A DNA stretch of 64,000 nt, taken from positions 20,896,001 through 20,960,000 of the forward strand of contig NC_086097.1 in NCBI RefSeq assembly GCF_963921235.1, in the 5' to 3' direction. The position numbers and the translations under genes are program-made. Source of the stretch: Mobula hypostoma. Taxonomy: Eukaryota. How positions within the stretch are numbered: the first letter of the stretch is position 1; each line of letters begins with the position of its first letter. Positions 1-62,125 of this stretch are shown here, one piece after another. Below the pieces are notes generated by a model that was not told the DNA's origin, did no database searches, and saw nothing but the letters and a program-made list of their open reading frames with translations.

Positions 1-459
1 AATTGAGAATCATCCTAATGACCATCCCTGGCTTGTTTTACCTTCAATGCTTGCCAACAAAGATTGGCTTCATTAAGAAATAAGGAACTTTTATTTGATA
101 TTTCCTGGTCTTAAACTACTTATAATTATTGCTTGCATACATTCATATTGTTTTCATATGCTTGACCTCATTATTTATAAAAATTCACTTGCCCAGTCCT
201 GCGGGTAATCTGTTAACCCTCAGACTGGTAGAGTGCTGAGAGCAAAGACGTTGAGCTGGATTTGAAAGGTAAAGTAAAATATCAGGGATTAATGTAATCA
301 ATTAAATCGAAGCAGCAAATATAATTTAATCATATCGGTTGCTAAATGAAGCATATAGAATTAATGCAATGACATGGAAATATAGATGGAAGAACTCTGT
401 TACAACCAGCACAATAGCAGAATCTTGTGCAGTGTAAAGAAAATAAATACAATATATTG

Positions 460-1799: not shown

Positions 1800-2097
1800 C
1801 TGCAACCTTCCTATACCACCTCCTTCTACTACCCATTGTGCTTTCCCCTTTTCCTTCTTCACCTTTCCTGCCTATCCCCTCCCTGCTTCCCCTCCCCCAC
1901 CCCTTTATCTCTCCCCTTACTGGTTTTTCACCTGGAACCTACCAGCTTTCTCCTTCCCACCCTCCCCCCACCTTCTTTATAGGGCCTCTGCCCCTTCCCT
2001 CTACAGTCCTGACGAAGGGTTCTGGCCTGAAACTTTGACTGATCGTTTCCACGGATGCTGCCCGACCTGCTGAGTTCCTCCAGCGTGTTGTGAGTGT
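1800..2097 (+). mobile_element. Penelope-like 3' fragment (pyrimidine-rich UTR plus terminal repeat with hammerhead motif at 2004-2041)
   Basis: cagtc-CTGACGA-agggttctggcct-GAAAC-ttt-gactg followed by gatgctgcccgacctgctgagttcctccagc. Confidence 0.75.
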
Positions 2098-2235
2098 TAC
2101 CAGTTGAGGGTAATCTGGGCCTTGATGTTTGGCCTGGGAGGGAATGGCAACATTAGTATCCTTGTCCTTACAGAGGAGTGAGAGGATTTTTCAACAATAG
2201 AAGGATTTTGAGTGTCTCTTGAGTTGTGATCTCCG

Positions 2236-2637
2236 TACTTGACGAAGGATATACTGGCTTTGGAGGCAGTGCAGAGGAAGTTAACCTATGAGAGATTGAG
2301 TCGCCTGGGACTATACTCTCTGGAATTCAGAAGAATGAGAAGGGATCTTATAGAAACATGCAAAATTTTGAAAAGGATAGATAAGATCCGTTTATTTTTC
2401 CCCAGAGAGTGGTGAATCTGTGGAATTCTCTGCCCAGGGAAGCAGTTGAGGCTTCTTCATTAAATATATTTACGATACAGTTAGATAGACTTTTACATAG
2501 TAGGGGAATTAAGGGTTATGGGGAAAAGGCAGGTAGATGGAGCTGAGTTTACGGACAGATCAGCCATGATCTTATTGAATGGCGGGGTAGGCTCGATGGG
2601 CCGGATGGCCTACTCCTGCTCCTATTTCTCATGTTAT
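2236..2637 (+). mobile_element. CR1 LINE 3' fragment
   Basis: Degenerate RT C-terminus (EAVQR, RRMRRDLIET, RVVNLWNSLP) and tail cctactcctgctcctatttctcatgtt. Confidence 0.8.
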
Positions 2638-3891
2638 GTCTCAAAGTGGCTGCTGTATGTAACCCAAATTTCTGTGTGCTTCTGAAGGACTGGAAACAAA
2701 TACTTAGTAAAACACAATTCCTGTGCTGACCCACTCAAGGCAATGGTGAATGCTATCAACATCCAAGCCCCCCGATAGCTCCCAAGGTCTAGCGCGTGCT
2801 CCACATTTGAGGGAATTGTCCTCAGCTGTTATCAGTGTATAACAGTAGTAGGTTTGTCTTTGTTTAGCAGATGCAACTAAGACTCATCCAAGTTGGAGGG
2901 CTGAGCTTAGCCTCTAAATGGGTCTAAATGTAAGCACCATCTCTCTAGCATCTCAACTATTGAGGTTGGTTCTGGAGTGGCAGTGATGTAGGTTGAATAT
3001 TTTCCCATTAACCCTGAAGTAAGCTCCACTCCAGCAGAAAGATGCAGAATTATGATAAAAACTGGAAAATGAATCTCATACTAGATCGAGATGAAATTCT
3101 AGAATAAATACATCTTGAATCAGAATGATCCACCAGCCCATTCTGCCTGAGGCACAAAACTAAATCGCCTTGCACACCACAATATTGATACTTCTCGACC
3201 TGAAAGATCAGTAACCCTTTAGGAAATACAAAAATGCAGATTTAGGGAACAATGGCACAAACAAAACCTGGAAATTTCCTTTGACCCTTTTGAGTGATCA
3301 AAGCTCATCCTGGAAACCAAGTGAAATCCAAGATTATGTGGTACCTACATCTTCTAAGTGTTTTTCATAAAAGCTAGGTGCAGCCACTTGCTTGTCCTGG
3401 CCTTGCAGAAGAGGAGATTGTGACCCCCTGATGCAACCTATTAAGTTGAAACAAACTGTCTAAACAATTTATTTCCTTCATCTTATAAACTTCAATCACA
3501 CAAGCCTACGCTTTTGAAATGTAGAATCCCAGCTCTGAGCTTATCTTGATGACTAAGATGCTTTAAACTGGGTATTAATCATGCAACTCTCTGCACCCCT
3601 GACAAATCCTCAACATATCACCCATGTAATGATGACCGCCTCTGCAGTTGTGATGCTATCAATTTAATTTCAGATTAAGGAACAAAGTGAAGCCAGTACT
3701 GTCAGGCAAAATCAGGATTCAAGATTAACGTTTATTTATCACGTGTACATCGAAACGTAGTGAAATGTGTTGGTTTGTGTTAACAACCAGGAAAGTGGAG
3801 AGAGAACACAGCCGGTACAAAGAGGCAAAGGAGAGGAAAGACAGGGACGGGTAAGGATAGTGGATGAAGGACGATGAGCTGAAGGAGCCAG

Positions 3892-3935
3892 TGGGAGAAA
3901 GGTAGTGCTGGGAGAAAGGTAGTGCTGGGAAAAAG
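3892..3935. repeat. 17-bp tandem repeat (about 2.5 copies)
   Basis: tgggagaaaggtagtgc x2 plus partial third copy. Confidence 0.85.
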
Positions 3936-4059
3936 AGGCAGCTGAGTAACAATTTGAAATAGACAAGTGGCTAGATAGCATTAGGTTTGGGATGGGCTGT
4001 GAGGGGTAAGACGACTGGCAGCTTATGCTTTAGGTAAGGGAACACAAATTCATATGAAA

Positions 4060-4680
4060 ATAGCACCATAGATTCTGCCTAGGCAGTCTACAGCCCATAT
4101 GGAATGAACACTCAATGTTCCTTTTTTTTCAGGAAACACTATTTTCCTCTCCTAATCCACCTCCACTCTTCCCATTTTTTGCTCCCTTTCCCATCATCCA
4201 CTTACAAATCACTTTCCCCTACCGAATCTATCCACCTATTAACTCACTTCAACTAGATCTCACTCCCCCACATGGTTCGAACTTCTATCACGTTTCTCCC
4301 TTACCAGATTCCAGCAATGAGAGCCTTTCTGTCCCAACTCATCACTCTCTAGCCCGTCTACTTTCACCTCCTCAGCCAGCTCCGTTGGCCGTTATGTATC
4401 CTTGACCGTTTCCGCCCATCACCCACCTGCCTACTGCCCAGTTCCCATCTCCTTCTGTTCATGATCCCTCACAAACCAGCACCCCCCCACCTCCTGGTCC
4501 ACTCATCACCTACAGACCTCCTCCCCCTCTTTATACTGGCCATCTTTCCTCCACTTTCAGTCCTAATACAGATCTCAACCGAAACAATTCTTCCTCATCA
4601 TCTGTGAGGGAGCTGCTTGACCTACTGAGATCCTCCAGCAGTTTACTTCTTTTGCTCTAGGTTCCATATCTGCAGTGTTA
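4060..4680 (+). mobile_element. Old Penelope-like 3' fragment
   Basis: Remnant of GIY-YIG end (ggcagtctacagccc...ggaatgaac), C/T-rich UTR, degenerate terminal repeat. Confidence 0.55.
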
Positions 4681-5084
4681 AACATTTAAAAACAATTTTG
4701 TACGTACTCTACATTGTGACTAAGAGCTGACGACTGTGATGCTTTCAGCAAGTTGTTGCATTTTATATAATTTTGAATAAATTAAATAACTTTGAATAAA
4801 TGAATAAAAAAATCAAGTTTAAAGCTATCTTTACCAGTAGATTTTCACCTTCCATTTAGTCACTGCATTTTAATCAGATAATTCTTTATTCTCTTTACAC
4901 TCACTGATGCACTTCTGGAGTCACACAGGCGCTTCCCCCCCACACACCATGGAACACAAAATTCTAAGCTGAATTCACAATGCAGCACCCAGTTAGTGCT
5001 GAACTCTGGTGGGATTAACATGAGATGTTATACTGCAGTGGAGAGAAAGATCACACAATAATATTTCAAAGGCTATTGGAGAGA

Positions 5085-5215
5085 ACCCTTGTGCCCATGT
5101 CAACACTTACAGGTTAGCACCAAAGACTGTCGCTGTGCAGAAATTAGTGGTTGCATTCCCTGTGTCACAACTGTGATTACACTTCAAAAGTATTTCATTA
5201 GCTGTAAAGGATTTC
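5085..5215 (+). mobile_element. Ancient DeuSINE/L2-tail-like remnant
   Basis: gctgtgcagaaattagtggttgcattccctgtgtcacaactgtgattacacttcaaaagtatttcattagctgtaaag resembles the AmnSINE1/SacSINE1 3' tail as recalled. Confidence 0.45.
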
Positions 5216-6154
5216 AAAATGCCATAGACGTACACCTTCAGAATCCTCTGAAAAGGGAAAAACCAAAGATCCCACTGAAATTTTAGTTCTTACAAACATC
5301 TGACAGAAATGATAATAAAAAGAAAGCTCTGGAATCAAACAAGCATCCGTGGGAAGAGAATCTCAGATGACAAGTCCGATTGAACACCATTTCACAATTC
5401 TAGCATCTGCAGGTCCTTATTCATGCATGTGACATGTGAAATAAGAGCTTCACATCATTAGCAAAATTTATTTGAAGGCTACAAGTATGAACTGTGTGAA
5501 TGGACTGCAAACAAATCAGCCATTAAATTCAAGAGAAAACCCATTAGTCATGAATAACAGCTACAGATATGAACTGCAGTGGAGTAACACAAGCTCAAGC
5601 CAACCTGTTACAGATGACCATAAAATCTGAACGTCTATAGCCCAGTAAGCACGTCACTGAGGTTTGACATCATCCACATAAAAGCCTCCTGGTGATGAGA
5701 AAATATGGCTCCGAATATCATACTTGACAGAGATTTTTGTAGCTTGACTGGTGTACAGAAGTTTAATTACAATGCATTGTAAATTGGGGGTCCAATGGTA
5801 TCAAAGAAAACTCCTCTGCCCACCCACATGAAAAGTTTCAGCCACATTAAAGTTATGGCATGAGAAGGGGATTGGGCCCCAAAGTGGAAATATCCCACTT
5901 CAGGTTCAGAGAGAAACTCAGACTCTGATTAAAGTACAAACTTCAAAACATTCATAAAAGCGTGATTCAACATCTGTTTGTGGATGGGAAGTATAGGCTG
6001 GAACATTTATTTTTAGTCACTTAGTAAAGAGCTTGGGTAGAACTAAATTTGTACCTTTACAGATCTGCTAATGTTGCCTTCAACATTAGGCAAGTCTGCT
6101 TTGCACCTTAACATAGACCTCTTGCTTTCGTCTCCATATTGTGGAGGGCAAGTC

Positions 6155-6990
6155 ACGTCTCACAAACTTGACCAAGTTATTCTGAGGAAGTGACAAAAGA
6201 GCTTGACGGGGGTAAGGCAGTGGACACTGTCTATAGGGATTTTAGTACTAGAGAAGGTCTCTCAAGGTGGGTTGATTCAGAAGATAAAGATGCTTGGGAT
6301 CCAGAGCAAACTGCAAGTTTGGATTCCCAAGGGGCTTTCTCAGAGAGGACAAGGGGTGGAAGGCTGTTATTCTTGCTGGAGGTCTGACCAATAGTGTTTC
6401 ACAAAGATTGATATGGAGACCTCTTACCTCTTGTTTGTGATAGATAGATAGATAGATATCAATTATTTGGATGTAGATGGGTGGATTAACAAGTTTGCAG
6501 AATACACTAAGATTGGGAGTTGTAGACAGTCTAAAGGACAATCAAAGAATATTGCAGCATATAGCTCAGCTACAGACATGAAATGGCAGTTGGAGTTTAA
6601 TTCAGGAAAGTGTGAGGTGTTGCTTATTGGGAAGTCAAATGAAAGAAGAAAGTATCGTTAGATGTACAGAGGAATTTTGAGGTCCAGATCCATAGCTCAC
6701 TGAAACTGGCTATGCAAGTGGATAGGGTGATAAAGACAATATGTGGAATGCTTGCCTTCATTAGTGGGGCTGTTGAGTACAAGAGTAAGGAAATCATGCT
6801 GCAGGTATATAAAACCTTAGACCTCACTTAGGAGTATTGCGTGCAGTTCTGACCACCACTCCATTAGAGTTTTACCATGATGCTGACTGGATTAGAGGGT
6901 ATGAGCTACAAGGTTGGTCAAACTTTGATTTTTCTCCCTAATTTTGCAGGTGAAGTCTAGACCCGATAGAGGTTTTTACCCATGTCAAAC
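6155..6990 (+). mobile_element. CR1 LINE RT fragment (frameshifted), with (GATA)n at about 6438-6458
   Basis: ORF pieces TKELDGGKAVDTVYRDFS, WINKFAEYTKIG, WQLEFNSGKCEVL are RT domain remnants. Confidence 0.85.
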
Positions 6991-8430
6991 TCCAGAGTAC
7001 ATGTTTTTAAAGGGGGGGGGGGAGAAAGAGGTAGCACGAGGGGGGCAAAACCATAGACCATAAGACTTAGGAGCAGAATTAGGCCATTTGCCCATTAAGT
7101 CTGCGCCGCCATTCAATCATGGTCAATCATTTTTTTTTCTTCATCCAAGCTTTTTTTTAAAAATTAAAAAGTGGTAGGTGTCTGGAATAGATTACGAGAG
7201 GTATTACAGGAGTCAGGCAGTTTGGTGGAGGCTTTTAGATAGAGGAACTTAAAAGAATTGAGGGAGTTTGAATGATATACAAGAGATCATTTAGCATATA
7301 TTGGCACAACACTGTGGGTGAATGACATGACCAGTGCTGCACTGTTCTAACATCTGAGTGTCAGAGGGGGACTTGGCCAATCTGATGGTGAGGAGGAACG
7401 AGCTAATACATTTATTTTTATGAACTAATGCAGTTATACATTGTCACTTTTCACTGGATAAGTAAGTAAAATACATTGATTTCAGCTTCAGAAGTTGATT
7501 GCTGCCATACATGTGATACAACTGCAGCCCCAAAACCTACTCTTGGAATGGCAGGTAAAGGCCTTTATCTTGCTGCTACCCTTTTTGAAAGGCTTGTGTT
7601 GAAATCAAACAGCCCAAGAGCAATGCCTCACATCTTAACTGTTTAGTGTCAGAGTCAGTTCACAGACCTCTTCATGTGAAGTTGGTCTTAAATTCAACAG
7701 TACTGGAGAAGCCCTGGAACAAAGCAAAGTCCTTTATTTTATCTCAAGTAAGGTGGGCAGTGCTCAGTATAAAGCATTGGGTGGAACATTTCCTTGCTCT
7801 TCAATTGGTTTCTTTGCCTTCACACACAACCCATGAGATACTGTCAACTCTTAGTGAAATATAAAACAGACCTGTTGCTTAATTCCATGTTCCAAAACAT
7901 TGATGACAAATTGTGCACTACATCATACTGAACAGCAGGAACTACATCTCAGAAAACAGCAATTCATTATTGTATATATAAAATTGGGATTGAAGGCATG
8001 ATGCTATAAATGATATCCCTCCAGTTAAACAATCCTTTCAACGCCGAAGTTGTAGAATAATTAGCTCTATACTGCAGTGCCACACTTGGTCACCGAGCCA
8101 AGTTTTTTTGTCTAGAATGTGCAAATGAGTTCAGACCTAGGCTACTCCTCCAGGGAATAGTTTTCTTTTGTGGGTAACAAGCTGTAACACAACCTTGATT
8201 TTTAGGCATTTGGTGGAGGAGGGGAATAGAGGAAGATTGCATCCCAGAATGTTCATAGGTACATATAACCATAACAATTACAGCACGGAAACAGGCCATC
8301 TCAGCCCTTCTAGTCCATGCTGAACGCTTACTCTCACCTAGTCCCACTGACCTGCACTCAGCCCATAACCCTCCATTCCTTTCCTGTCCATATACCTATC
8401 AGATAATTTATTAAAAAGTACAAGAGAAAG

Positions 8431-8655
8431 ATGAGCCAGCTGGTAGCGTAGCGGCATCAGCGCCAGACTTCGGAGCGAAGTCTCCCGAGTTCGAACCCAG
8501 CCGGCTCCCGTGCACGCTCTCCATCCATGCCTGGTTGAGCATCGAGCTAGCAACTCGACCTCGTAAAAAACAAATTACCTGCTACAGAAACATCAACAGC
8601 AAAAAGCTGATGGCCTATGCTCTCTCATGAGTTTAAAAGGCAATTTCCTTTTTTC
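8431..8655 (+). mobile_element. tRNA-derived SINE with RTE-like internal motif, 10-bp TSD
   Basis: A-box-like tggtagcgtagcgg, B-box gagttcgaacc; TSD caagagaaag at 8421-8430 and 8656-8665. Confidence 0.8.
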
Positions 8656-8779
8656 CAAGAGAAAGGTAGTTGATCCTAGCTTTATATGGGGCTTTATTTT
8701 ATGAGACTCTCAGCTTCTTAATTTTCTGGAATCACTATTTTTAATACGTAAAGTGCATTTCCTTAGCCTGTTATGGAAA

Positions 8780-9145
8780 CCCCTCCCCCATCATCCAGGC
8801 CATGCTCTCTTCTTGCTTCTGCAATTAGGAAGGAGGTACATGAACCCAAGGTCCTACGCTACCAAGGTCAATAACAGTTATTACAATTCAACCATCAGGT
8901 TCGCGAAGCATTGAGTCCACAACTCACTTTCAAGGACTCTACAATTCATGTTCTCAATACTATTTACATTTTTTTTACATATGTTTTTGTATTTGCACTG
9001 TTCTATTTTGCATATTGGTTGTTTGTGTGCAGTTTCCCATTGATTTTATCGTATTTCTTTGTTCTATGAATGCCCACAAGAAAATGAATCTCAAAGCAGC
9101 ATATGGTGACGTATACAGTTTGATAATAAATTTACTTTCAACTTG
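8780..9145 (+). mobile_element. Rex1/Babar-type LINE 3' fragment
   Basis: ccatcatccaggccatgctctcttc...ggaaggaggtac (HPGHALF..GRRY) and tail gataataaatttactttcaacttg. Confidence 0.65.
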
Positions 9146-9696: not shown

Positions 9697-9888
9697 GGTA
9701 AACACGAGGAATTCTGCAGATGCTGGAAATTCAAGCAACACACATCAAAGTTGCTGGTGAATGCAGCAGGCCGGGCAACATCTCTAGGAAGAGGTACAGT
9801 CGACGTTTCAGGCCGAGACCTCGACTGTACCTCTTCCTAGAGATGTTGCCTGGCCTGCTGCATTCACTAGCAACTTTGATGTGTGTTG
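9697..9888 (-). mobile_element. Fold-back Penelope-like insertion, 68-bp inverted arms, 10-bp TSD
   Basis: Arms 9736-9803 and 9821-9888 (2 mismatches); TSD tgtaaataag at 9687-9696 and 9889-9898. Confidence 0.88.
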
Positions 9889-10019: not shown

Positions 10020-10520
10020 ATCATTTCCATTCCAACATGTTGGTCCATGGCCTTCTCTTGTGCCAAGATGGGGCCACCCTTGGGGCAGAGGAGCAACACC
10101 TTATATTTTGTCTGGGTAGCCTCCAACCTGATAGCATGAATATCAATTTCCTCTTCTGGTAAAAAGATATCCACCACCTCTTCCCTCTTCCTCAATTCCC
10201 CACTCTGGCCGTTTACCTCTTCTCACCTATCACTCCCCCCGGGTCCCCTCCTCCTTCCCTTTCTCCTATCCTATGGTCCAATCTCCTCTATCTTCTCCTA
10301 TCCTATGGTCCACTCTCCTCTATCTTCTCCAGCCCTTTACTTTTTCCACCCAGCTGGCTTCACCCATCATCTTCTAGCCTACTTCCTTCCTCTCCCTTGA
10401 TATTTTTATTCTGGCATCCTTTCCAGTCCCGAAGAAGGGGCACGGTCTGAAATGTTGACTGTTTATTCGTTCTGTAGATGTTGCCTGACCTGCTGAGCTC
10501 CTCCAGCATTTTGTGTGCTC
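10020..10520 (+). mobile_element. Penelope-like 3' fragment: GIY-YIG C-terminus, UTR with 32-bp tandem duplication (10261-10324), terminal repeat
   Basis: 10052 onward reads LLLCQDGATLGAEEQHLIFCLGSLQPDSMNINF; degenerate hammerhead at about 10424-10461. Confidence 0.8.
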
Positions 10521-24062: not shown

Positions 24063-24505
24063 TAAATAAACAATTAACTGTGTACCTTATGTCTCTCAAT
24101 TTTGCACATTACCATCAGCTGCGTCAGTTCAAGAGACAAGGCCAGTCTATCCAATTCCAAGTCCACCAATTCAGCAACATTCTGGCAAATCTTCTCTGCA
24201 CTCTCTCCAGCACTATCACAGCCTTCCTACAGTGTGGTGAGTCGAACTGAGTACAGCATCCCAAGTGTGGCTAAACAGTTTGTGTAGAGTTGAAATAAGT
24301 CTTAAGTCATTCTGTGCCCCAGCTTATGAAGGCCAGCATGCCATATGACTTCTTCATGACCCTATCTATGTGTTTTGCCACTTTCAAGAAACTCTGAATT
24401 TGGATGCAAACAACAGGAATTCTGCAGATGCTGGAAATTCAAGCAACATACATCAAAGTTGCTGGTGAACGCAGCAGGCCAGGCAGCATCTCTAGGAAGA
24501 GGCGC

Positions 24506-24541
24506 AGTCGACGTTTCAGGCCGAGACCCTTCGTCAGGACT
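24506..24541 (-). ncRNA. Minimal type-I hammerhead ribozyme motif (sense to SPTLC2 pre-mRNA)
   Basis: AGUC-CUGACGA-AGGGUCUCGGCCU-GAAA-CG-UC^GACU: helix I AGUC/GACU, intact core, palindromic ACGU helix III; predicted cut between 24510 and 24509. Confidence 0.75.
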
Positions 24542-24546
24542 CAGTT

Positions 24547-24582
24547 AGTCCTGACGAAGGGTCTTGGCCTGAAACGTCGACT
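24547..24582 (+). ncRNA. Minimal type-I hammerhead ribozyme motif
   Basis: AGUC-CUGACGA-AGGGUCUUGGCCU-GAAA-CG-UC^GACU; predicted cut between 24578 and 24579. Confidence 0.75.
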
Positions 24583-24814
24583 GCGCCTCTTCCTAGAGAT
24601 GCTGCCTGAATTTGGATGTTGCTTCATCAACTTTGTTTAGCGATTTCCCATTTACTATAATGTCCTGACTTCTCAAAATAATTTTCACACGTTAGTCTTA
24701 AATTCCACCTGCCAACACTCTGGCCAACTTTCCAACTCTGGCATCAGACAATCTTCCTCACTATCTTACCACTACCTCCCAATACTTTTGTGTGAATCTT
24801 TGAATAATTAATAA

Positions 24815-26010
24815 GCAGGATGGACAAAGCAGTATCAGTAGATGGTGTGTACTTGGCTTTTCAGAAGGCTGTCAACAAGATGTCAAGAGGCTGCTTAAGT
24901 TACAAGCCCATGTTATTACAGGAAAGACAGTAGCATGGATAAAGCAGTGGCTGATTGGCAGGAGGCAAAGAGTGGGAATAAAGGGAGCCTTTTCAGTCTG
25001 GCTGCCGGTGATGAGTGTTTCATAGGGGCCTATGTTGGGATGGCTTCTTTTTACGTTATATGTCAATGACTTGGATGACAGAATTGATGCCTTTGTTGCA
25101 AAGTTGGCAGATGATCTGAAGATAGGTGGAGGGGCAGGTAGTTTTGAGGAAGTAGAGAGGCTACAGAAGGACTTGGATTAGGAGAATGGGCAAAGTGACA
25201 GATGAAACACAGTGTCAGGAAGTATACTGCCATATACTTTGGTAGAAGAAATGAAAGGGTTGACTATTTTCTAAATGGAGAGAAAATTCAAAAATCTGAG
25301 GTGCAAAGGGACTTGGGAGTCCTTGTAAAAGATTTCCTAAAGGTTAATTTGCAGGTTAAGTTGACTTTGAGGAAGGCAAATGCAATGTTAACATTCATTT
25401 CAAGAGAACTAGAATATAAAAATAAGGATGTAATGTTGAGACTTTATAAACCACTGGTGAGGCCTCACTTGGAGTATTGAGAGTAGTTTTGTTCCCTTTA
25501 TCCAAGAAAGGATGTGTTGACATTGGAGAGTGTTCACAAAAATAATTCCAGGATTGAATGGCTTGTCACACGAGCAGCATTTAGTGGTTTTGGGCCTATA
25601 TTAACTGGAATTCAGAAGAATAAGGGGTGACCTCATTGAAACCTATGGAATGCTGAAAGGCCTCAAGAGAATGGATGTGGAGAGGATATTTCCTATGGTG
25701 GAGGAGTCTAAGACCAGAGGACACAGCCTCAGAATAGAGGGCCATCCTTTTAGAATGGAGATTGGGAGGAATTTCTTCAGCCAGAGACTGCTGAATCTGT
25801 GGAATTCGTTGCCACAGTCAGCTGTGGAAGCCAAATCTTTAGGCATATTTAAAGCAGAGGTTGATAGATTCTTGATTAGTCAGGGCATGAAAGGATATGG
25901 GGAGAAGGCAGGAGAATGGGGCCAAGAGGGAATATGGATCAGCTGTGATGAAATGCAGAGCAGACTCAATGGGCCAAATGGCCTAATTCTGCTCCAAAAT
26001 CTTATGGTCT
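24815..26010 (+). mobile_element. CR1 LINE 3' about 1.2 kb (frameshifted RT)
   Basis: [52 protein letters not shown]. Confidence 0.9.
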
Positions 26011-27671: not shown

Positions 27672-27795
27672 TAAGCACGAGATTCTGCAGATGCTGGAAA
27701 TCCAGAGTAACATACACATAATGCTGGAGGGGCTCACTAGGTCAGGCAGTTTCTATGGAAGGGAACAGAATCTACATTTCAGGCCGAGACCTTGG
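27672..27795 (-). mobile_element. Penelope-like terminal repeat fragment
   Basis: gattctgcagatgctggaaatccagag...tttcaggccgagacc. Confidence 0.7.
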
Positions 27796-29809: not shown

Positions 29810-29930
29810 CCTGAAGGATCTCGGCCTGAAACCTTGACTGTTTACCGTTTTTCATAGATGCTGCCTGCCTGCTGAGTTCCTCCACCATTTTGTGTGTGTT
29901 GTTTTGGATCTCCAGCATCTGCAGACTATG
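29810..29930 (+). mobile_element. Penelope-like terminal repeat, hammerhead core partly deleted
   Basis: cctgaaggatctcggcctgaaaccttgactg...gctgagttcctcc...ccagcatctgcaga. Confidence 0.7.
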
Positions 29931-39920: not shown

Positions 39921-40079
39921 AACACTCACAACATGCTGGAGGAACTCAGCAGGTCGGACGAAGGGTTCCGGCCCGAAACGTTGACCGATCTTTTCCACAG
40001 ATGCTGCCCGACCTGCTGAGTTCCTTCAGCGTGTTGTGAGTGTTGCTTTGACCCCAGCATCTGCAGATTATTTTGTGTT
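39921..40079 (+). mobile_element. Fold-back Penelope-like insertion, 15-bp TSD
   Basis: TSD tacgacaaaataaat at 39906-39920 and 40080-40094; 37-bp inverted 5' arm (39921-39957 vs 40008-40044); hammerhead truncated at its 5' core. Confidence 0.88.
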
Positions 40080-40536: not shown

Positions 40537-40663
40537 CAAGAGTTGTACCATCTTCTCCCATAATGCACTTCATGGAGGCGATGATCTGTTCTGCAACAGG
40601 TGCAGACATTGAAGTAGCATAAACCGTACTGTGAGAATATGAGCGAAGATAGTCCACAAGTTC
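40537..40663 (-). CDS. SPTLC2: SPTLC2 internal coding exon (human exon 9 equivalent), 127 nt
   Basis: tttcag|GAA CTT GTG...CTT G|gtaagt; [42 protein letters not shown](G); in frame with previous exon. Confidence 0.95.
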
Positions 40664-48135: not shown

Positions 48136-48355
48136 CTTTTTGCCACCTATGTATCCACCAGCTGCACCGAAGCTCTTGGTGAAAGTTCCCATCATGACAT
48201 CCACATCCTTGGGGTTCAGATCAAAATATTCAACCACACCACGGCCTGTGGGTCCTAGAGCCCCGATGCTGTGAGCTTCATCCAGGTAAAGATAGGCTTT
48301 GTATTTTTTCTTTAAAGCTACTATCTCAGGCAAGCGGACAATGGAGCCTTCCATA
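48136..48355 (-). CDS. SPTLC2: SPTLC2 internal coding exon (human exon 8 equivalent), 220 nt, contains PLP-binding lysine
   Basis: cacag|T ATG GAA...AAA AAG|gtacaa; [77 protein letters not shown] and GTFTKSFG motifs of alpha-oxoamine synthases (Lys codon 48175-48177); residues favour SPTLC2 over SPTLC3. Confidence 0.96.
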
Positions 48356-52345: not shown

Positions 52346-52477
52346 AACACACACTAAATGCTGGAGGAACTCAGCAGACCACTTTTTCTAGCCCATAGAT
52401 GCTGCCTGGCGTGCTGAGTTCCTCCAGCATTTCGTGTGTTGCTTGGATCTCCAGCATCTGCAGACTTTCTCTTGTTT
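52346..52477 (+). mobile_element. Fold-back Penelope-like insertion lacking the hammerhead
   Basis: aacac..aaatgctggaggaactcagca is inverted against tgctgagttcctccagcattt..gtgtt; possible short TSD gattgag. Confidence 0.75.
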
Positions 52478-53070
52478 GTGAAGATGATTGAGAATCTTTC
52501 TAAAACTCAATATACTGTTATGACCAGGATTTTGCTGCCTGAGAAGATGGCAAAAATTACGGTCTTCAATAGGCAAATGGATCAGCTCTAAGAGGAAAGT
52601 AAAATTCAGGGAGAAGACAGGGAATGGGAGAAAACAATAGGTGTCAAATTAGCTTGGATTTGATAGGCATTTTCTGTGCCATTATGATTCGACAATATTC
52701 TTGTGCTAAGTGATTCACAAGTGTATTTCAACTTTCTGTTCCTTGAGCACACAATCTAAAAACCCACAAACAACTTGAACACTGACAGTGGCATATTCTG
52801 ATCCTAATTGAAATAAGAGACCGTCTTATAAAGGTTACTTTGATTAGGTAACCTAAATACATTGAATAAAGTGCTGCTCAGCGGTACACAGCATATACCT
52901 CAGGATGTAACATGCTGACTTGACACCACATTCTAATTATTAGAAACTCCCCAGTCAGTCCAAAGCACTGTTTCCATGATAATGCAGATGGGTTACTTAG
53001 TAAGTTTGTAGATGACAAATGGCTAAGTTATGGGTAGTAGGGAAGTTATCAAAGGAAACAGTAGGATCTA

Positions 53071-55115: not shown

Positions 55116-55251
55116 AAACACAAGAGATTCTGCAGATGCTGAAAATCCAGAGTAACACACACAAAATTCCAGAGGAACTCAGAAGGTCAGACAATGTTTA
55201 CGGAGTGGAATAAAGAGCCGATGTTTCGGGCTGAGACTCCTTTGTCAGGAC
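55116..55251 (-). mobile_element. Penelope-like terminal repeat, hammerhead G8 mutated
   Basis: Minus strand gtc-CTGACAA-aggagtctcagccc-GAAAC-atc. Confidence 0.75.
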
Positions 55252-61954: not shown

Positions 61955-62125
61955 CAGAGTAACACACAAAATGCTATCTGACCTCCTGAATTCCTCCAGC
62001 ATCTATAGCAAGGAATAAACAGTTGACATTTCAGGCTGAGACCCTTTATCAGAACTGGAAAGGAAGTGGGTAGAAGCCAGAAGACCAAGGAATGTGGACT
62101 ACAGGAAGGGGAAGTTGAGAGGACC
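61955..62125 (-). mobile_element. Penelope-like terminal repeat with hammerhead variant (62020-62057)
   Basis: Minus strand cagtt-CTGATAA-agggtctcagcct-GAAAT-gtc-aactg. Confidence 0.7.

Follow-up and report, generated by a model that had tools for sequence, protein, structure and literature searches.

A palindromic insertion with two opposed hammerhead motifs in an SPTLC2 intron of Mobula hypostoma, probably a head-to-head pair of Penelope-like terminal repeats

Genomic setting and structure of the insertion

The window, a stretch of 64,000 nt from contig NC_086097.1 of Mobula hypostoma, carried exons of SPTLC2 on the minus strand. The exon at 48139..48354 (48.1-48.4 kb) covered the PLP-binding region, with a match to PF00155, and corresponded to residues 320-391 of human SPTLC2 in a PDB match (E 6e-40). 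Two further minus-strand exons, one at 40537..40663 with AG/GT borders and one near 56.6 kb, were assigned by short sequence motifs and presumably belong to the same gene. An exon about 4.2 kb before the window start was likewise taken to be SPTLC2, based on a short sequence motif that was one of five genome-wide matches to the pattern. Between 40.5 kb and this pre-window exon a further SPTLC2 exon was expected, but searches with short motifs did not find it. The insertion was located approximately 16 kb downstream of 40537..40663, the nearest upstream SPTLC2 exon found. Since the flanking SPTLC2 exons are on the minus strand, the insertion is intronic and its minus-strand motif lies in the sense direction. 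LINE-like repeat fragments with RT-like open frames and high depth adjoined it at 24800-25400 and 24140-24290. A second locus, G000:C22:75811567-75820202, held a PF00155 exon together with the downstream motif at a distance of 8 kb and is probably the SPTLC3 paralogue.

The insertion was bounded by an unstranded direct repeat of 13 bp, with the left copy at 24394..24406 and the right copy at 24606..24618. A sequence-only reading had described 62-bp arms with one mismatch and a 13-bp target-site duplication (TSD), and the repeat comparison bore this out (24480-24541 against 24547-24608; 24394-24406 against 24606-24618). The inverted repeat of 62 nt was 98% complementary, with one mismatch and 5 nt between its halves. 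These 62 nt were, however, only the mirrored part of a left arm that was in fact 135 nt long. This long arm, at 24407..24541 on the minus strand, was a 135-nt pLTR running from the hammerhead 5' edge to the usual 3' end of the family (+131 from the core). It included a 'tail' of about 35 nt and was 100% identical to sister loci such as L009, L010, L012, L016 and L019. The short arm, identified by inverted-repeat comparison at 24547..24608 on the plus strand, was an inverted second pLTR copy that extended to +58, and its final three bases were common to the right TSD as microhomology. The mismatch between the arms was a C>T change at 24564, within a CpG, giving G-U in the plus-strand RNA and A-C in the SPTLC2-strand RNA. 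The 5-nt gap between the arms (24542..24546, plus strand) was present as described, but it was no foreign spacer: its bases were native to the element, belonged to the right, short arm only, where they lay upstream of the plus-strand motif, and also preceded the motif in longer sister copies. The 5' extension at this junction was 10 versus 4 nt, with 1 nt of microhomology.

A core search placed one minimal type-I hammerhead motif at 24506..24541 on the minus strand, sense to SPTLC2, with a predicted cut between 24510 and 24509. The other was at 24547..24582 on the plus strand, antisense to SPTLC2, with a predicted cut between 24578 and 24579. The loose core search gave eight matches across the window, and only these two had a complete 4-bp stem I. 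For the minus-strand RNA, the predicted hairpin had a folding energy of -154 kcal/mol (z -18), and 0/200 shuffles were as stable.

Further members of the family were present in the window. A second fold-back at 9700-9888, between the same two SPTLC2 exons found, had a long arm to about +130, a short arm to about +94 and a flanking repeat of 10 nt. Its junction lay inside the hammerhead and neither core was complete. At 39939-40067 and 52364-52478 lay older relatives that are more diverged, have short inverted arms and account for spurious Rfam hairpin matches. Eight decayed pLTR fragments, with 72-86% identity and without an intact core, were distributed over both strands (462-589, 1262-1289, 2005-2077, 10425-10508, 27682-27791, 29813-29925, 55116-55251 and 61997-62056). 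The Rfam matches to mir-2432 and psbJ in the window were dismissed as generic hairpins; as a microRNA precursor, mir-2432 reached only 35.7 bits against a gathering threshold of 100.

Age and authenticity of the insertion

Presence or absence of the insertion was compared across four sequencing runs, of which one (X5) came from another, related organism, here organism B. One 750-nt contig of X5 ran from 24393 straight to 24606: the site is empty there, and the 13-mer occurs once. Its flanks differed from the window at 8/750 letters, plus one 3-nt insertion. The empty site identifies the 13-nt repeat as a true TSD and places the insertion after the split of the two lineages, making it young. 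A fold-back chimera of the assembly could also yield a palindrome, and the palindrome centre was spanned by no contig of the read sets. Both flank-to-element junctions were, however, present in contigs of run X1 with 0 differences, although X1 may be the assembly's own sample. In addition, the arms differed at one base and the duplication agreed with the empty site of organism B, so that an artefact is extremely improbable.

Properties of the hammerhead motif

Each arm had been described as encoding a complete hammerhead core. All conserved core nucleotides, the NUH triplet and a 4-bp helix I were indeed present, but helix III consisted of four self-complementary bases without a loop, which makes this a minimal, dimer-type motif whose helix III requires two motifs to form. 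Helix II was weak, with 3-4 bp, and had G-U or A-U where G10.1-C11.1 is usual. A C at the site of the 11.1 pair occurred in 5/94 arms and in the L089 copy; G10.1-C11.1 is highly conserved, not universal. No hammerhead family was among the seven matches at E<=5 in an Rfam scan of the whole window. A canonical, monomer-active type-I hammerhead was ruled out by the missing loop 3 and the missing Rfam hammerhead match.

The motif shared its core, the 4-bp helix I, the palindromic 15.2-16.2 without loop 3 and the location in the pLTR with the minimal type-I hammerheads described for metazoan PLEs (Cervera and De la Pena 2014, PMC4209133). In contrast to the motifs described there, helix II had 3-4 bp and started with G-U or A-U instead of G10.1-C11.1. 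Opposite-strand hammerhead pairs about 100-700 bp apart are already described in the same paper, whereas the cores here were 13 nt apart. The approximately 40,000 identical cores found here also differ from the 2,000-9,000 variable motifs per genome given there. As to activity, single minimal motifs are reported not to cleave and dimers to cleave little (PMC4209133), and a review gives low or no activity for minimal hammerheads (PMC6765202). The hammerhead of a lizard (Anolis) PLE is described as cutting only with the element's protein and as dispensable for insertion (PMC11167929). By analogy with these systems, the motif probably could not cut RNA alone. The two motifs of the insertion lay on opposite strands and never occur as ribozymes on one RNA.

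The parent element and its copies

In the 3.48 Gb of genome searched, 39,897 exact 31-nt cores were detected, and at least 1,712 head-to-head junctions, defined as exact 15-mers with a gap of <=30 nt. Reversed-pattern controls gave 0 in both searches. Longer copies ran upstream into an ORF with an RT domain followed by a C-terminal GIY-YIG domain; this linkage had been set as the test of element identity and was present in long copies. Across parent ORFs, RVT_1 was matched with E 3-4e-5 and GIY-YIG with E 2-6e-4 (one at 2.4e-4), all under the Pfam cut-offs. L090 held both domains in one frame of 654 aa (RVT_1 E 3.8e-5, GIY-YIG E 5.5e-4, both under the Pfam curated cut-offs). In L037, the hammerhead motif was located 269 nt past the ORF stop. 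The terminal-repeat arm in ORF-bearing copies was 99-100% identical to the arm in the window. A three-cysteine motif preceded the GIY-YIG domain in the translations, forming a cysteine-rich linker between RT and endonuclease (EN). Judged from these predicted domains, the parent is an endonuclease-bearing (EN+) Penelope-like element (PLE). By the description in PMC8557442, where the cysteine motif of the Neptune linker is also noted in Nematis, it is probably of Neptune type. The locus in the window is accordingly read as two head-to-head, 5'-truncated PLE terminal repeats without consequence for the host, and this reading, identity and neutrality together, is held with high confidence. The sequence-only reading had missed that the palindrome is the end of a PLE and that the genome holds at least 1,712 sister fold-backs.

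Several copies showed further details of the element. L091 (1004-2776 and 577-1431, minus strand) carried a near-full-length parent ORF, with 591 aa open and a frame break before the endonuclease. L090, with RT and endonuclease in one frame, was nevertheless 5'-truncated. L019 and L021 extended beyond the usual 3' end, downstream of the long arm, with the same approximately 70 nt. The element's own 5' region probably begins with this extension, as tandem insertion predicts. L092 comprised, at 161-2262, a 1.7-kb arm with a tail and a 370-nt inverted arm without one, the same anatomy on a larger scale, and a separate fold-back at 2705-2920.

Alternatively, the 199-bp palindrome might be a small non-autonomous, MITE-like or retrozyme-like element that is copied as a unit. 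The 40 scored near-full-length matches with 92-100% identity would suit such an element, as would the one other locus, L003, with the same centre. However, the long and short arms were swapped in L003, centres, short-arm lengths and arm polarity differed between copies, and the commonest centre accounted for 9/50. The same anatomy also occurred with arms of hundreds of bases (L092), and direct tandem units were absent. Copying as a unit is therefore very improbable; with non-uniform centres and short-arm ends, and with an inverted pair only, both the MITE and the retrozyme readings were rejected. The non-LTR retrozymes described in a preprint (bioRxiv 10.64898/2026.07.22.740005) are likewise PLE-derived and non-coding and carry a type-I hammerhead. 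They are described as direct tandem units with at least two same-strand motifs, whereas the copies here were inverted with one motif per strand.

Arm ends and formation of the fold-backs

Arm ends were mapped for 50 of the 1,712 junctions, taken from the start of the genome order, with the window's own copy excluded. The long arm ended at +123..137 from the core in 49/50 fold-backs and the short arm at +85..102 in 43/50, defining two arm-end sites one tail (about 35 nt) apart. Short arms ending below +60, as in the atypical window copy (+58), were found in only 5/50. The best flanking repeat measured 13-14 nt in 31/50 fold-backs. An inverted 5'-truncated copy with a tail at one end was found in the sampled fold-backs; such a copy, with a tail of 30-40 bp on one end only, is described as typical of EN+ PLEs (PMC8557442, PMC3846280). 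The inverted pLTRs of EN+ PLEs, as far as they are described, show the same junction palindrome, one-sided tail and short duplication (Craig et al. 2021, PMC8557442; Arkhipova et al. 2013, PMC3846280). In contrast to these, both arms were here reduced to the pLTR alone, copies numbered thousands and junctions were piled up at the hammerhead 5' edge. The duplication was mostly 13-14 bp here, compared with 8-10 bp in the rotifer PLE cases (PMC3846280).

Two models were considered for the origin of the palindromes. In the first, priming would occur from both target strands. The element's enzyme would nick the two strands 13 nt apart and each nick would prime one cDNA on the same source RNA. The first cDNA would start at the far start site and yield the long arm with its tail; the second would start further in, in the window copy via the 3-nt microhomology, and yield the short arm. 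Both cDNAs would run to the hammerhead 5' edge, where their 3' ends would then be joined. In the second model, a simple snap-back, the first cDNA would self-prime near the hammerhead and be copied back to the second target end, with the loop trimmed later; self-priming has been proposed for head-to-head palindromes in rotifer PLEs in the cited passages of PMC3846280.

The arms of each fold-back agreed in their subfamily alleles. At three subfamily sites, discordant arms were found in 2/46, 1/43 and 1/42 fold-backs, compared with 21-24 expected for random templates; L046, L056 and L074, which have indels, and the window's copy were left out of this comparison. The shared alleles indicate one source RNA, and a separate source RNA for each arm was rejected on this concordance. 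Concordant arms are also what snap-back would give, and early conversion between the arms is a further possible cause.

At the centre of the palindrome, the long arm reached further 5' in 22/50 fold-backs, the short arm in 20/50 and both equally far in 8/50. Extra bases were present at 21/50 junctions, and such junctions fit either model. Among the 29 clean junctions, 24 had 1-4 nt of microhomology, which snap-back would explain, and a hairpin with a loop fits some junctions, e.g. those of L003, L045, L070 and L076. The short arm was ahead by at least 3 nt in 12/29 clean junctions and the long arm in 9/29. In the window copy and in those 12/29, each arm held bases that the other lacks, so neither arm can have been the sole template of the other, which argues against snap-back. 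If the palindrome centre had later lost bases, the short arm could also seem to reach further. Against snap-back also stands a recurrent junction with an 18-nt gap, which had the 'loop' on the short arm in 4/5 cases. Loopless perfect palindromes were moreover seated on native self-complementary words in 9/50 and 7/50 listed junctions of two control windows (by eye). On balance, dual priming from both target strands is favoured over simple snap-back and considered fairly probable, whereas snap-back is considered unlikely.

The enzyme of PAc, the Poseidon element of Anolis carolinensis, is described as cutting and extending both strands, with two start sites one tail apart and a predicted dimer (PMC11167929). 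The two start sites of PAc lie downstream of the hammerhead, like the arm ends here (Frangieh et al. 2024, PMC11167929). The element here differs from PAc in the 269 nt that separate the ORF stop from the hammerhead and in the cysteine-rich RT-EN linker, and the available passages of the PAc text do not derive inverted structures (PMC11167929). LINE-1 twin priming, as described in PMC12016303, gives the same cDNAs primed from two strands, in opposite orientation and with a duplication of about 13 bp. The L1 cDNAs derive mostly from separate parts of the RNA, with a median overlap of 12 bp, whereas here the overlap is the whole short arm, which results in a palindrome (PMC12016303). Short new insertions, with a median of 128 bp, are reported for PLEs in an alga (PMC9977147). 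Within the titles, abstracts and passages covered from the open literature, no derivation of PLE palindromes from two-strand priming was found, nor any report of a PLE junction hot spot at the hammerhead 5' edge.

In itself the locus is ordinary, a young intron copy among thousands, and its motif, element class and inverted architecture are already in print. It is useful mainly for what it suggests about the insertion of Penelope-like elements. The formation of PLE tandem and inverted repeats has been called an open problem (PMC8557442), and the at least 1,712 near-identical fold-backs allow their ends to be mapped at single-base resolution and set against the two-site, two-strand chemistry observed in vitro. 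The junction pattern across the family may be new and is a lead worth following on how these repeats form.

Position at which the arms stop

Starts of copies were examined in 29 young copies, including that of the window, that were picked by the 3' 99 nt only; L022 was left out of the 30-locus sample because it belongs to one complex locus with L021. The start lay between -20 and +30 from the core in 15/29 copies and the remaining 14 were spread over at least 1.5 kb. Fold-back junctions per single k-mer amounted to 2.04% (1,712/84,000) at the hammerhead 5' edge, 0.43% (514/121,071) around the cut site and 0.19% (124/66,910) in a control about 40-55 nt upstream. This corresponds to a 5-11-fold enrichment at the 5' edge, a rough value as the k-mers differ in length and decay. 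The excess at the cut site over the 0.19% of the upstream control sat on native palindromic words. The highest junction rate at the 5' edge indicates that the arms stop where stem I begins and not at the cut. The hammerhead cut was rejected as the main stop, with 0.43% against 2.04% and a start exactly at the cut in 1/29 copies (L020). In L020 (1400-1600), both fold-back arms began exactly at the base after the predicted cut, and this fold-back is possibly the product of a cleaved RNA.

There are several candidate causes of the stop. Transcription may start upstream of the hammerhead; the junction hot spot contained initiator-like words. PLE promoters are described as located in the pLTR (PMC2377424, PMC6765202). 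A 3' splice site is another candidate, as a pyrimidine run and AG immediately preceded stem I, and the intron of Drosophila Penelope is described as ending at helix I (PMC4209133). Synthesis may also pause at folded or protein-bound RNA. Taken together, a joint reading is put forward tentatively, at somewhat less than even chance: a dimeric enzyme would prime from both nicks on a single RNA, using start sites separated by about 35 nt. On the pLTR at the front of the transcript, both cDNAs would, much like strong-stop DNA, run off where the RNA begins immediately 5' of the hammerhead, rather than at its cut site, and would then be joined end to end. If true, one model would cover the palindromes and the excess of solo repeats of about 135 nt as well as the 13-14-bp duplication and the tail on one side only, and uncut RNA would be the usual template.

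Hairpin formation and tolerance of the intact core in the intron

The sequence-only reading had stated that whichever strand is transcribed yields one ribozyme and its antisense. This is true of either strand, with one motif per strand. It had also proposed that the RNA folds into a hairpin sequestering the ribozyme, and folding predictions agreed: in the SPTLC2 pre-mRNA, the arms would pair into a 62-bp hairpin that buries the motif. The predicted hairpin was favoured over the ribozyme fold by approximately 63 kcal/mol and formed as the motif emerged, already being the best predicted fold once 10 nt of the motif had been made. The predicted pairing of stems I and II was 0.6-0.7 in the single arm and about 0 in the palindrome. 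The antisense arm is made first in the SPTLC2 pre-mRNA, as had been noted, but the geometry makes this so for both strands. The hairpin is well predicted to bury the motif, which is probably almost silent anyway.

The hairpin, it had been suggested, may explain why intact cores are tolerated in an intron. In its full form, an antisense arm would silence a harmful active ribozyme and selection would enrich intact sense cores in fold-backs. The loss of stem I and II pairs in the co-transcriptional hairpin (about 0 versus 0.6-0.7) is in line with this, and among young copies, head-to-head partners were frequent, with 8/29 close fold-backs and 4-5/29 with a more distant head-to-head arm (by eye). 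With some partner in about 12-13/29, pairing with an antisense arm is common, which counts against a neutral reading. The depletion of tandem retrozymes from Xenopus introns, as described in bioRxiv 10.64898/2026.07.22.740005, leaves room for selection on active motifs, although 42-44% of retrozymes were still intronic in the same study. Against silencing, the loopless helix III requires a partner motif, so that the single motif has no helix III on its own, and the reported activity of such motifs is low or absent. The insertion is absent from organism B, with flanks differing at 8/750, and is younger than the split from that lineage, so the intactness of the core reflects its youth. About 10/29 young copies had an intact core without an inverted arm within the 1.5 kb examined (by eye). 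An identical sense core was found in an intron of ABCD4, on the coding strand, 1.5 kb behind an exon (residues 272-312 of 606), with the nearest opposite-strand arms 0.9-1.3 kb downstream. This sense core without a close partner shows, as a single counterexample, that tolerance needs no hairpin. Silencing with selection is accordingly regarded as improbable, and the hairpin is not supported as an explanation of tolerance. The insertion in SPTLC2 is probably neutral and no host function is needed.

A core in TTC7B was dropped as a further counterexample, with an opposite-strand arm about 620 nt away; no exon was recognised in the inspected part of its 6.5-kb region. The approximately 40,000 intact cores offer material for a sense-versus-antisense test of pre-mRNA cutting by minimal hammerheads in vivo. 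The 62-bp intronic duplex is a candidate ADAR or Dicer substrate, as had been noted, and RNA editing or small-RNA production from it is plausible; the family is also a test bed for the handling of many perfect intronic hairpins by a vertebrate.
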